64,000 nt of DNA, from NCBI GenBank assembly GCA_963787835.1, contig CAWBEI010000002.1:1184001-1248000 (forward strand), written 5' to 3'. The position numbers and the translations under genes are program-made. Positions within the stretch are counted from its first letter, which is position 1. Each line of letters starts with the position of its first letter. Shown here piece after piece: positions 23,842 to 63,954 of this stretch. The stretch is from Ignavibacteriota bacterium. GTDB lineage: Bacteria; Bacteroidota; Ignavibacteria; Palsa-1295. The notes under the pieces are model-generated. The model had not been told where the DNA came from and made no database searches. It worked only from the letters and a program-made list of their open reading frames with translations.

Positions 23842-23965
23842 CGTCATTGTGAGGAAAACATTCGAAGCAAGCGGAGAATGTTTGATGAAGCAATCCCTTC
23901 ACCACCCTGAGATTGCAGTGTCGAGAAAATCTTCCTTCGGTCGGTTCTCTCTCCTCGTCAATGAT
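23842..23965. repeat. Family-B palindromic element, empty and degenerate
   Basis: CGTCATTGTGAGG...GAAGCAATC then GATTGCAG...CCTCGTCAATGAT. Confidence 0.7.
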
Positions 23966-37533: not shown

Positions 37534-37957
37534 TGTCATCCTGAGCGAAGCAAATCGTAGCGGAGCGGAGATTTGCGAAGTCGAAGGATCGGTTGTTATG
37601 CTATGAAATCGTATTACGTTTACATTCTAAGAAATCGAACGGCGGTTCTATACATCGGAGTCACAAACGATCTTCAACGACGGCTTTATGAGCATAAGAA
37701 CAGGATGATTGCAGGATTCACTCATCGGTATAATATTGATCGGCTTATCTATTTTGAGACCTTCGACGATGTGAACATCGCGATTCACCGTGAGAAACAG
37801 TTGAAAGGCTGGACTCGCGAAAAAAAGCTTCGACTCATTCAATCCTCAAATCCAAATTTGGAGGAGATCTCTTTTGACTGAAATGGTGGAAATTACACCC
37901 GATTCTTCGACTTCGCAAATCTCCGCTCCGCTGCGATTTGCTTCGCTCAGAATGACA
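37534..37957. mobile_element. Family-A palindrome-flanked GIY-YIG element (putative)
   Basis: 57-nt inverted arms 37534-37590 and 37901-37957 (3 differences) enclose only the nuclease gene. Confidence 0.7.
37603..37881 (+). CDS. Small GIY-YIG nuclease (UPF0213-like)
   Basis: YVYIL..LYIGVTNDLQRRLYEH..AIHREKQLKGW. Confidence 0.92.
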   Translation: MKSYYVYILRNRTAVLYIGVTNDLQRRLYEHKNRMIAGFTHRYNIDRLIYFETFDDVNIAIHREKQLKGWTREKKLRLIQSSNPNLEEISFD

Positions 37958-56310: not shown

Positions 56311-56456
56311 TGCCATTCTGAGCGTAGCAAAACGTAGCGAAGCATCGGCAGCGATGCGGCGGAGTTTTGCGGAGTCGAAGAATCTTTTTCAATACCAGAG
56401 ATCCTTCGACTCCGTTCGGTTCCGCTTCGCTCCACCGAACTCCGCTCAGGATGACA
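56311..56456. repeat. Family-A palindromic element, empty
   Basis: TGCCATTCTGAGCG...GTCGAAGAATC, 15-nt spacer, GATCCTTCGAC...CGCTCAGGATGACA. Confidence 0.85.
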
Positions 56457-58623: not shown

Positions 58624-58700
58624 TAGGTAAAGGAACAAAGTCAGAAGTTAGCTAATCCCCGATGTGAACTACTGCATTGAGAGCACCGTTAAACAACATT

Positions 58701-58925
58701 ATGGGAGAAAAGAATAAGGGAATTCCGCTTATCGAAGCGAATCCGTATTTACGGAGCCTCACAGAAGAAGAGCGTGAATATTTGCTGAGAGTGTCTGCCT
58801 ATGAGTCGAGCGTCTTTGAGGGAGCTCGGGGTCTCCAGCGGCCTGTCTTGCGCATTAAGTCCTTATCCCAACGTTTAGCGCCTCGTTCAAGGGCATCCGC
58901 AAAGAAGTCGGTCAAAGCTCGATAA
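58701..58925 (+). CDS. Putative Fic antitoxin
   Basis: 74 aa with SSVFEG matching (S/T)xxxE(G/N); convergent overlap with fic. Confidence 0.6.
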   Translation: MGEKNKGIPLIEANPYLRSLTEEEREYLLRVSAYESSVFEGARGLQRPVLRIKSLSQRLAPRSRASAKKSVKAR

Positions 58926-60743: not shown

Positions 60744-61174
60744 GTCATTGCGAGAAGGAATCACGCAGCGGAGCGGAGTGATTCCTTCGAAGCAATCTCA
60801 CTCTTTAAGTTTATAGTACAATGTCATCGTACAAATCTTTCCATTCGGGGTTCATGGATCGAATCAACGATTCTTTCTTCGCCCTTGAGCCTGCCTTTAT
60901 CTGCTTCTCTCGAGCGATTGCAATATCCGGCTGCTCGAAGAATTCGTAATACACAAGCTTGTGTACCCGATACCTCGATGTAAATCCTGGTATCTTCATT
61001 TCACGATGTTCCGCGATCCTTCGTACAAGGTTATTTGTGACTCCGGTGTAAAGCACTCGATTGCTAACATTCGTTGTAATATAGACTGCAAAAAACGTCT
61101 GAGTCATTTCAAGAGTGAGATTGCTTCGGAAAGAATTGCTCCGCTCCGCTGCGCAATTCTTTCCTCGCAATGAC
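60744..61174. mobile_element. Family-B palindrome-flanked GIY-YIG element (putative)
   Basis: GTCATTGCGAG...GAAGCAATCTCACTCTT (60744-60805) and its inverse (61111-61174) enclose only the nuclease gene, inside the nuo operon. Confidence 0.7.
60811..61107 (-). CDS. Small GIY-YIG nuclease (UPF0213-like)
   Basis: AVYITT..LYTGVTNNLVRRIAEH..AIAREKQIKAGSR..NPEWKDL. Confidence 0.92.
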   Translation of the reverse strand: MTQTFFAVYITTNVSNRVLYTGVTNNLVRRIAEHREMKIPGFTSRYRVHKLVYYEFFEQPDIAIAREKQIKAGSRAKKESLIRSMNPEWKDLYDDIVL

Positions 61175-61198
61175 ATAATAAAATGTTTGATTCATTTC

Positions 61199-62255: not shown

Positions 62256-62369
62256 AATTACGAATTACAAATTACGAATGGAAATTGAAAATAGTTTTTC
62301 TCAGTGTGGCTCCGGTAAAAGCTGTGCTTGCGGAGATTTGAAATTCGTAATTCGTAATTCGTAATTTTT
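62256..62369. repeat. Inverted ACGAATT heptamer arrays
   Basis: AATTACGAATTACAAATTACGAAT ... ATTCGTAATTCGTAATTCGTAATT, overlapping the nuoA 3' end. Confidence 0.8.
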
Positions 62370-62855: not shown

Positions 62856-62958
62856 CGTCATTGCGATGAAGCAATCTCTGGCAGTCGTACTGTAAGCGGA
62901 GGGATTGCTTCGTCGAGCTTGATCGGCTGTCGCCGCTCAAGCCCTCCTCGCAATGACG
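62856..62958. repeat. Family-B palindromic element, empty
   Basis: CGTCATTGCGATGAAGCAATC ... GATTGCTTCG...CCTCGCAATGACG. Confidence 0.82.
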
Positions 62959-63799: not shown

Positions 63800-63954
63800 T
63801 GTCATTCTGAGCGGAGCAAACGGGAGTCCGGTCTCAACGGACTCCCGTTTGCGGAGTCGAAGAATCATTTTTCTTTGAGTAGATCCTTCGACTCCGTTTG
63901 TCCCTGCAAGCATCGTGGGCGATCCGCGTCGGGACACACTCGTTCATGATGACA
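63800..63954. repeat. Family-A palindromic element, empty
   Basis: TGTCATTCTGAGCG...GTCGAAGAATC, 15-nt spacer, GATCCTTCGAC...CATGATGACA. Confidence 0.85.

Follow-up and report, generated by a model that had tools for sequence, protein, structure and literature searches.

A small GIY-YIG gene between GTC-tagged hairpins in a nuoC-nuoD gap: a B-type Ssn cassette with a likely cognate repeat family

Between nuoC and nuoD of the window (the whole 64,000-nucleotide stretch of DNA that was analyzed) lies a small GIY-YIG gene enclosed by two palindromic arms, and the locus raises the question of what kind of element this is and whether gene and palindromes form a cognate pair. The explanation favored here, at a probability of roughly 0.6, is a B-type Ssn cassette, the enzyme of which likely nicks single-stranded DNA (ssDNA) immediately 5' of its own hairpin type, and is likely what spreads this family of hairpins.

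The gene, coding for a 98-aa single-domain GIY-YIG protein of the B clade of the Ssn family (KQIKAGS), runs on the minus strand from an ATG at 61107 to a stop at 60811 (60811..61107), with PF01541 as its sole domain (E = 1e-15); an alternative in-frame ATG at 61176 would give 121 aa, reading through the right arm. The left family-B arm, downstream of the gene (60744..60797, plus strand), has the GTC tag, an ATTGC/GCAAT basal stem, an A bulge and tandem G.A, and in its upper part a variable inner stem, a GC-GGA-GC apex and the closing C; the right arm lies upstream of the gene (61119..61174, minus strand). Both arms read GTC-ATTGC-GAG-hairpin-GAA-GCAAT-C with tags facing outward. The left-arm tail (60798..60808, plus strand) is an inverted match to the right-arm tail (61108..61118, minus strand; first bases 7/7), which stops directly before the ATG, and arms plus matching 7-8 nt tails form imperfect inverted repeats of about 65 nt. 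The flanking genes, nuoD (PF00346; 59512..60729, minus strand) and nuoC (PF00329; 61199..61720, minus strand), are on the same strand as the B gene. The preliminary description had been exact on the arms, their coordinates, the 98-aa GIY-YIG and its nuoC-nuoD position. The nuoD-arm and gene-arm junctions were covered by public contigs of two other runs with 0 differences; no empty allele was seen in the contigs of four sequencing runs, and no contig spanned the whole stretch. The 19 bases after the nuoC stop (61180-61198) form a near-repeat of the ssn gene start (61092-61110; 16/19), so that the upstream arm stands between two near-copies of the gene start; as a single case, this may be a relic or chance.

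Further copies of the arms were present in the window. A gene-less B dimer lies upstream of nuoA (62857..62957; left arm 62857-62876, its inner stem lost; right arm 62903-62957), and a second, degenerate dimer occupies 23843..23965 (left arm 23843-23895; decayed right arm about 23911-23965), and both empty B copies reported earlier are real. A family-A loaded element (37535..37956, plus strand) has ATYCT arms around a 92-aa KQLKGWT Ssn gene (37603-37881); gene-less A dimers were found at 56312..56455, with a nested 16-nt palindrome in one loop, and at 63801..63951, where the right arm is decayed. The difference between KQIKAGS and KQLKGW had been noted correctly, but the GCGGAGCGGAG loop does not mark loaded copies as was claimed, since other loops occur in the second A-loaded copy and in B-loaded copies of relatives.

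The B protein was compared with the gonococcal orthologue from locus L275, which stood in for meningococcal SsnA. Identity to this N. gonorrhoeae protein was 49% over 91 aa (pairwise E = 8e-28), inside the threshold used for Ssn membership (E < 1e-10 over at least 75% of the length). Ssn proteins of NTS/SRM repeats (SsnA, CDD cd10448) are single-domain GIY-YIG proteins of about 95 aa with the same catalytic residues; the B protein is likewise single-domain and below the 150-aa bound (98 aa, PF01541 only). As in Ssn/NTS systems, with inverted hairpins on both sides, a YGTC tag 5' of the stem, a C after it and repeats genome-wide, the B gene is flanked by oriented hairpins that carry GTC as a 5' tag and have a C following the palindrome. 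Residues Y9, Y20 and E67 aligned with SsnA Y6, Y17 and E64 in the orthologue alignment and were retained in 75/78, 76/78 and 78/78 B proteins, respectively; in the protein of the window Y9, Y20, R30, H34, E67 and N86 are intact. The predicted structure had a GIY-YIG fold (pLDDT 95; against Slx1, Z 7.7 and rmsd 3.2 over 92 residues), and the closest solved folds were Slx1/UPF0213 GIY-YIG domains (PDB 4xlg, 6seh, 1zg2; Z 7.1-7.7), with identity to the B protein under 30%; unlike the B protein, Slx1 is a structure-specific repair enzyme of several domains and lacks flanking repeats. Searches of NCBIfam and PDB by sequence returned no specific match, and no Ssn structure turned up in PDB searches. 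Judged by its sequence, the B protein is a member of the Ssn family described by Chenal 2025; the type of system is thus already known, and the protein is very probably an Ssn-type ssDNA nickase.

Arm structure was counted in 74 B arms of 54 nt. Their basal stem hardly varies and is followed by an unpaired A; above this bulge a first G.A/A.G was present in 73/74 arms, then G-C in 74/74, then a second G.A/A.G, which was replaced by Watson-Crick pairs in 9/74. The 8-bp inner stem had 41 variants and 95% Watson-Crick pairs, and pairwise changes in it were two-sided in 11,645 cases vs. one-sided in 1,265. A third G.A pair set lies above the inner stem, and the apical triloop was C-G-closed in 74/74 arms and GNA in 63/74. 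At other loci, all four Watson-Crick forms occurred for the pair above the first tandem G.A (172/178), which fixes the register. The shortest common B arm (26 nt) is the basal stem capped by GC-GNA-GC; four counted loop motifs were confined to the GTC strand of the arms, and the base before GTC in B arms was C in 40% and T in 47%. In DNA, G.A pairs in tandem form a stable arrangement. ViennaRNA DNA-folding energies were left out of the analysis, as the folding model is without sheared G.A pairs. According to a source available in part (PMC13037366), GCGNAGC is an unusually stable, DNA-favored mini-hairpin with a sheared G.A pair, and the related GCGAAAGC has a Tm of 76.5 C as DNA vs. 39 C as RNA. 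B arms look like strand-specific DNA mini-hairpins, and from their pattern of constraint we infer that selection acts on the ssDNA structure and that the enzyme would read the arm base. Distinct inner stems were counted in 116 of 130 B arms; the inner stems of A and B are almost random yet 95% paired, which suggests that they arise by fold-back copying rather than by stepwise compensation.

An unbiased scan of the host genome (G000) for GTC, a 5-bp stem, a loop, the complement and C gave ATTGC (116), ATCCT/ATTCT (63 + 16) and ATTCC (55) as the top stem words, vs. a shuffled maximum of 6. A stricter catalogue held 130 B, 82 A and 56 C arms vs. 0 in a block-shuffled genome, the A count taking in 5 ATTCCG-like arms. 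The third family, C, is NTS-like and has its own ssn gene outside the window, at G000:C2:1473138. Two nuclease-repeat pairs had been proposed to coexist in one genome; both are present, but the third pair had been missed and the Ssn/SRM identity was not recognized. The Ssn-like genes of the host genome, one each for B and C and two for A, all lie within 60 nt of arms from a single family, their own (4/4); the remaining three GIY-YIG matches in this genome are a tRNA-linked small protein and two long proteins.

Head-to-head dimers numbered 113 (61 B, 34 A, 18 C), and single-family dimers made up 113/113 vs. 41% expected at random, so the earlier statement that no element mixes A and B arms held beyond the window (0/113 dimers). 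Three apparent B/A half-arm hybrids were dismissed as regex artefacts. Spacer lengths had their peaks at 18 and 26 nt in B dimers, at 15-19 and 33 nt in A dimers and at 32 nt in C dimers. No dimer with identical arms was found among B or A, and partners of near-identical B arms had a similarity of 0.62 vs. a background of 0.59 (2/111 pairs at 0.9 or above); therefore, halves reassort or dimers are built from two arms. This reassortment of B halves, or assembly from two arms, is only within their own family. Where arm pairs at most 450 nt apart enclosed a gene, it was ssn only (3/113 dimers). Loop types and nested inserts are common to A and B arms, and dimers often combine one GACC-GRA-GGGAG loop with one GCG-A-AGC loop (26/60). 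An adjacent direct repeat of at least 5 bp was found at 0/113 dimers, and the longest shared flank word at dimers was 4.58 vs. 4.53 permuted; as to the classical IS/MITE marks, there was no target-site duplication at the dimers and there was presence/absence at orthologous sites. Carriage of flank along with an arm was rejected, because upstream identity among near-identical arms was at background. A 9-nt run common to the right arm of the window and C2:733804 was observed post hoc.

Five ATTCCG-type 'D' arms with A-like upper parts were observed in the host genome (G000:C2:4464, 10703, 1181279, 1321037 and 1797231), one of which faces a D-like arm at C2:1181200. A D-type gene was not found in G000, none of these arms pairs with a catalogued A or B arm, and D-flanked genes occur in relatives G005, G015, G019 and G020. 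A 16-nt palindrome of the GCATCG-4nt-CGATGC type was counted 58 times in G000, 11 of these nested in A/B arm loops, and 0 times in two permuted controls; within the window it lies at 56312-56384 and about 63905-63925, and it looks like a separate, smaller mobile hairpin.

For arm type against protein clade, loci were gathered by protein similarity only (282 full-length; 250 after dropping those at least 90% identical), and 200/250 homologues had an arm within 300 nt, in a sample biased to relatives of the three query proteins. In a FastTree phylogeny of the 250 proteins (190 labelled), arm class took 22 changes vs. a shuffled mean of 86.5, and 0/200 shuffles reached 22. An IQ-TREE subset of 59 proteins was restricted to loci with concordant arms on both sides, and its bootstrap was not fully converged; here a 98/90 branch had all 21 B proteins together on one of its sides, the 14 C proteins (among them that of the gonococcus) took 2 changes and the 18 A proteins took 6. 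The expectation that KAGS and KGW clades would sort with ATTGC and ATYCT arms was borne out for the first, a single 98/90 clade of K-[AGS]-G-S proteins with ATTGC arms, but not for the second, as KGW proteins formed a grade in the 59-protein tree; this grade took 6 changes and was interspersed with NWH/RWH proteins and with ATTCCG arms. Phyla of the 78 B loci included at least 13 named ones, 28/78 being without a phylum name.

The top class-discriminating columns were 74, 72, 73, 17, 77 and 21, and the class motifs were [AGS]-G-S for B, mostly G-W-x for A and K-W-N with W77 and G17 for C. Gly73 was present in 77/78 ATTGCG-flanked (B) proteins. Conversely, the 89 Gly73 proteins had B arms in 77 cases, other arms in 2 and none detected in 10, two of the last having B arms with a basal mismatch; 8/89 had no B arm nearby. 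The proposed cognate pairing was thus upheld for B (77/79 Gly73 proteins with an arm had ATTGCG) and only loosely for A, with ATYCTG arms at 35/38 KGW proteins with an arm. Exceptions were a KSGS protein with an ATTCCG arm, KAGS with an ATTACG arm and KASR with B arms (one each). With columns 72-74 and 77 removed, B took 7 changes vs. 57 shuffled, and the starred B branch of the tree disappeared. Co-evolution by independent pairs was not significant, with 1-4 pairs per trait (2 for pairing, p = 0.5); the tree has a single origin of B, so that joint travel of gene and arms may be all there is to the association. Foreign and own loci taken together, A was combined with B at 0/158 loci with arms on both sides, and CT and CC arms were mixed at 5/158 two-sided loci, a soft A class boundary. 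At least two arm types were present in 20/33 genomes having at least 2 examined ssn loci, and three types in 6/33. Viral contigs searched with the C protein gave 1 full-length Ssn among 9 loci. The association of B arms with the B protein clade is supported and points to a cognate pairing. The B protein probably prefers B arms over those of A and C, and each enzyme likely recognizes and spreads its own repeat; near-complete orthogonality of the enzymes is somewhat doubtful.

The nuoC-nuoD gap was without the element in 29/29 relatives, 14 of them of the same genus. Among the same-genus relatives 5/14 had the B gene, at no fewer than 4 different sites, none of them nuoC-nuoD. At 4 B-loaded sites in kin, G000 had no element at 3 and a gene-less B dimer at accB-accC; G010 is also loaded next to accC, the comparison covering the accC side. 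One A-loaded site of G002 (L012) has a single C arm in G000 (G000:C2:751466), and this intergenic site is a possible shared hot spot. The nuoA dimer is common to G000 and G009 and absent from G002, G006 and G014 (2/5 syntenic genomes); G005 is not syntenic at this site. These comparisons show gain or loss of cassette and dimers among kin. Gaps bearing an element had, on either side of it, an additional flank of 10-30 nt that was AT-rich and unrelated. A gene-less B dimer was also observed elsewhere in the nuo operon of G014 (L334, about 824-910), a genome 91% complete in which no ssn gene was found.

Over 41 genomes, the B gene was present in 0/16 genomes having zero B arms, and all 11 genomes with the B gene had at least 5 B arms (3/11 had 12 or fewer). 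In 8/16 genomes with at least 20 B arms (G003, G006, G007, G008, G012, G014, G015 and G021; 80-100% complete) the B gene was not found with this query, which would fit transient cassette visits with repeats outlasting the gene, and would fit cross-mobilization as well; RAYT loss with repeats persisting has been described (PMC3686654, available in part). B genes were found in G019, G032 and G033, with B/A/C arms of 69/1/0, 12/1/0 and 25/0/0; in G023, which carries genes of the A and C types, B arms numbered 0. Operon insertion by Ssn cassettes is recurrent: one lies between MmeI and DrmA of a DISARM locus (L276, Planktothrix plasmid) and another between sufB and sufC (L278, Azospirillum plasmid).

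In the available part of Chenal 2025 (PMC11893778), SsnA binds the GTC-tagged hairpin as ssDNA only and cuts a few bases upstream; it requires the bases before the stem and the C after, tolerates loop loss, is inactive when the palindrome sequence is altered with the structure kept, and lowers transformation by repeat-bearing DNA in N. meningitidis. Cross-cutting among four Ssn enzymes was reported there, the published SRM pattern was near 71% of homologues, and the gene-flank screen took one homologue per genome; no passage on several Ssn types per genome was found in that part of the text. Family C is the NTS-type pair, with a protein 56% identical to the gonococcal orthologue and on the same tree branch. 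In place of the 8-bp perfect stem of NTS, the B arm combines a basal stem of 5 bp with an A bulge, tandem G.A pairs and an extensible upper stem (24-74 nt), and the K-K-W-N of NTS-type proteins is replaced by K-[AGS]-G-S in the B protein. The SRM pattern of Chenal 2025 matched 0/130 B, 0/82 A and 35/56 C arms, and by locus 0/78 B, 0/46 A and 27/34 CCC loci; therefore, strictly speaking, B and A arms do not count as SRMs. In the Chenal supplementary files (13 of 14 searched), none of three A/B stem words occurred. No description of a B-type pair was found in the literature, although Fig. 2c/3e of Chenal 2025 may still show B-type arms, and a search for the B motif gave no match on bacterial repeats by title or abstract. 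What is new is a variant with its own hairpin design, a widespread Ssn branch missed by the published pattern.

Di Nocera 2013 (PMC3733652, available in part) described CGTC repeats, their dimers and coexisting families, found no dedicated transposase and raised mobilization by generalist transposases. Like B, CGTC REPs of families 1-4 have a YGTC tag, an A-T stem start, head-to-head dimers, frequent heterodimers and coexisting families, and B arms have the CGTC/TGTC tag and form head-to-head dimers (61). Family C is CGTC-1 of that work; stems in the published families measure 8-9 bp and loops 4-5 nt, and B lies outside the sizes given for all four. The peptides listed for CGTC-1, -3 and -4 did not fit B, although B-type arms could still be those of CGTC-2 (Di Nocera Fig. 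2). RAYT/TnpA-REP REPtrons also place one enzyme gene between cognate tagged hairpins, have many REP classes with cognate enzymes, and have repeats that outlast the gene, and TnpA-REP groups read bulged vs. perfect REPs strand-specifically, a parallel to B arm-base reading (PMC8266576, PMC3686654, both available in part). The REPtron enzyme is HUH-Y1 with a GTAG tag, whereas the gene flanked here is GIY-YIG with a YGTC tag; tnpA-REP is reported immobile in these sources, whereas Ssn cassettes occupy different sites among congeners.

In the mechanism proposed for the B-type Ssn cassette, the arm would fold on the GTC strand only, as on the other strand the G.A pairs and the GNA triloop become C.T mismatches. 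The enzyme would read the invariant arm base (YGTC tag, ATTGC/GCAAT, closing C, A bulge and first tandem G.A) and ignore the upper stem, which would be free to vary while paired. Residues 72-74 and 77, which closely follow the metal-binding Glu67, are candidates for the read-out of stem type, together with residues 17 and 21. Owing to the inverted arrangement of the arms, one cuttable end would be available on each strand during replication or DNA uptake. Loaded cassettes would result where host repair joins nicked ends at intergenic sites rich in AT, with no duplication of the target, and gene-less dimers would follow after loss of the gene or reassortment of halves. We know of no strand-transfer chemistry for GIY-YIG domains, and whether the B enzyme is needed for the spread of dimers is evenly balanced. 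A broader reading, speculative and as a whole rather unlikely, joins four proposals: Ssn cassettes would be minimal selfish elements and the long-missing mobilizers of CGTC-type repeats; several orthogonal enzyme-hairpin lineages would live side by side in one chromosome; dimers would be made from two recruited own-family arms, with random paired upper stems made by fold-back repair; and a swappable code of 3-4 residues after the catalytic Glu (KAGS, KGW, KKWN) would set specificity.

The most serious alternative, unlikely as we judge it, is that gene and arms are inherited as one unit and that the enzymes read a shared GTC-A...T-C frame and cut all families. The single origin of B, with too few independent contrasts, the cross-cutting among published Ssn enzymes (PMC11893778), the apical loops and nested inserts common to A and B, and the abundant B arms in 8 genomes without a detected B gene would agree with it, and 3 of those 8 (G012, G015, G021) carry only A-, C- or D-type genes. 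Set against this, B halves change partners but are never joined to halves of A or C, the inner stem varies freely next to a basal stem that does not vary, and SsnA loses activity when the palindrome sequence is changed and the structure kept (PMC11893778); in addition, G019, G032 and G033 pair B genes with almost only B arms and G023, with A/C genes, has 0 B arms. A domesticated function as in Neisseria, in which incoming B-arm ssDNA is restricted, transformation is tuned and mobility is ancient or incidental, is quite improbable as the main account, and can coexist with the preferred one. Such a role was shown for SsnA in N. meningitidis (PMC11893778), and the host genome has ComEC and DprA homologues, but these are near-universal (10/14 and 11/14 control genomes). 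The ssn gene was co-oriented with its upstream neighbor in 29/36 clear B cases, so the genes are probably expressed; however, the patchy B gene of the same-genus relatives (5/14, at least 4 sites, none nuoC-nuoD) speaks against domestication.

That the hairpins are REPs moved by an IS200/RAYT-type HUH transposase, with ssn genes as captured passengers, is very improbable. There are 9 Y1_Tnp loci above the Pfam cut-off in the host genome, target duplication is lacking as in HUH elements, and generalist transposases were raised as movers by Di Nocera 2013 (PMC3733652), but 0/9 Y1 loci lay within 600 nt of any arm (nearest at least 661 nt), ssn was the only kind of gene between arm pairs at most 450 nt apart, and a passenger would not sort by arm type across phyla. 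Hardly credible, finally, is an action of the arms as RNA, as a terminator or stabilizer tuning nuo expression: although 41/61 B element ends following a stop codon were within 40 nt of it and 2/68 B elements lay inside ORFs (crude ORF caller), the orientation of neighboring genes was near background, the element was absent at nuoC-nuoD in 29/29 relatives, and C-G-closed GNA triloops are DNA-favored, GCGAAAGC being far weaker as RNA (PMC13037366).

The Ssn paper predicted many enzyme-repeat pairs and, in its available part, characterized only NTS-like ones (PMC11893778); A and B arms are invisible to the published search pattern, and the present finding supplies a widespread second and third type. 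Three pairs in a single genome are a natural set for a cross-specificity test, with specific residues to swap. If the pairing is as proposed, orthogonal ssDNA cutters of less than 100 aa would be useful tools, and a swapped residue code could reprogram ssDNA cutting. Orthologous sites were seen in three states (no element, gene-less dimer, loaded cassette), which is relevant to a question standing since 2013, namely what moves CGTC repeats.

Some minor observations were made beside these results. A distant small GIY-YIG gene at G000:C5:66909-67328 lies between two tRNA-Met(CAT) calls, with a short GC-rich palindrome ahead of the second call; within 18 kb of this gene, arms of the A, B and C families were absent. 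After nuoD, the window has a Fic-domain ORF (PF02661; 58799-59956), beside which a small ORF (58677-58925) could be a partner candidate. The 7-mer TTACGAA/TTCGTAA forms short inverted arrays at 62259-62279 and 62344-62367, around the nuoA end and nuoB start, and a similar array was seen in the nuoC-nuoD gap of L143.
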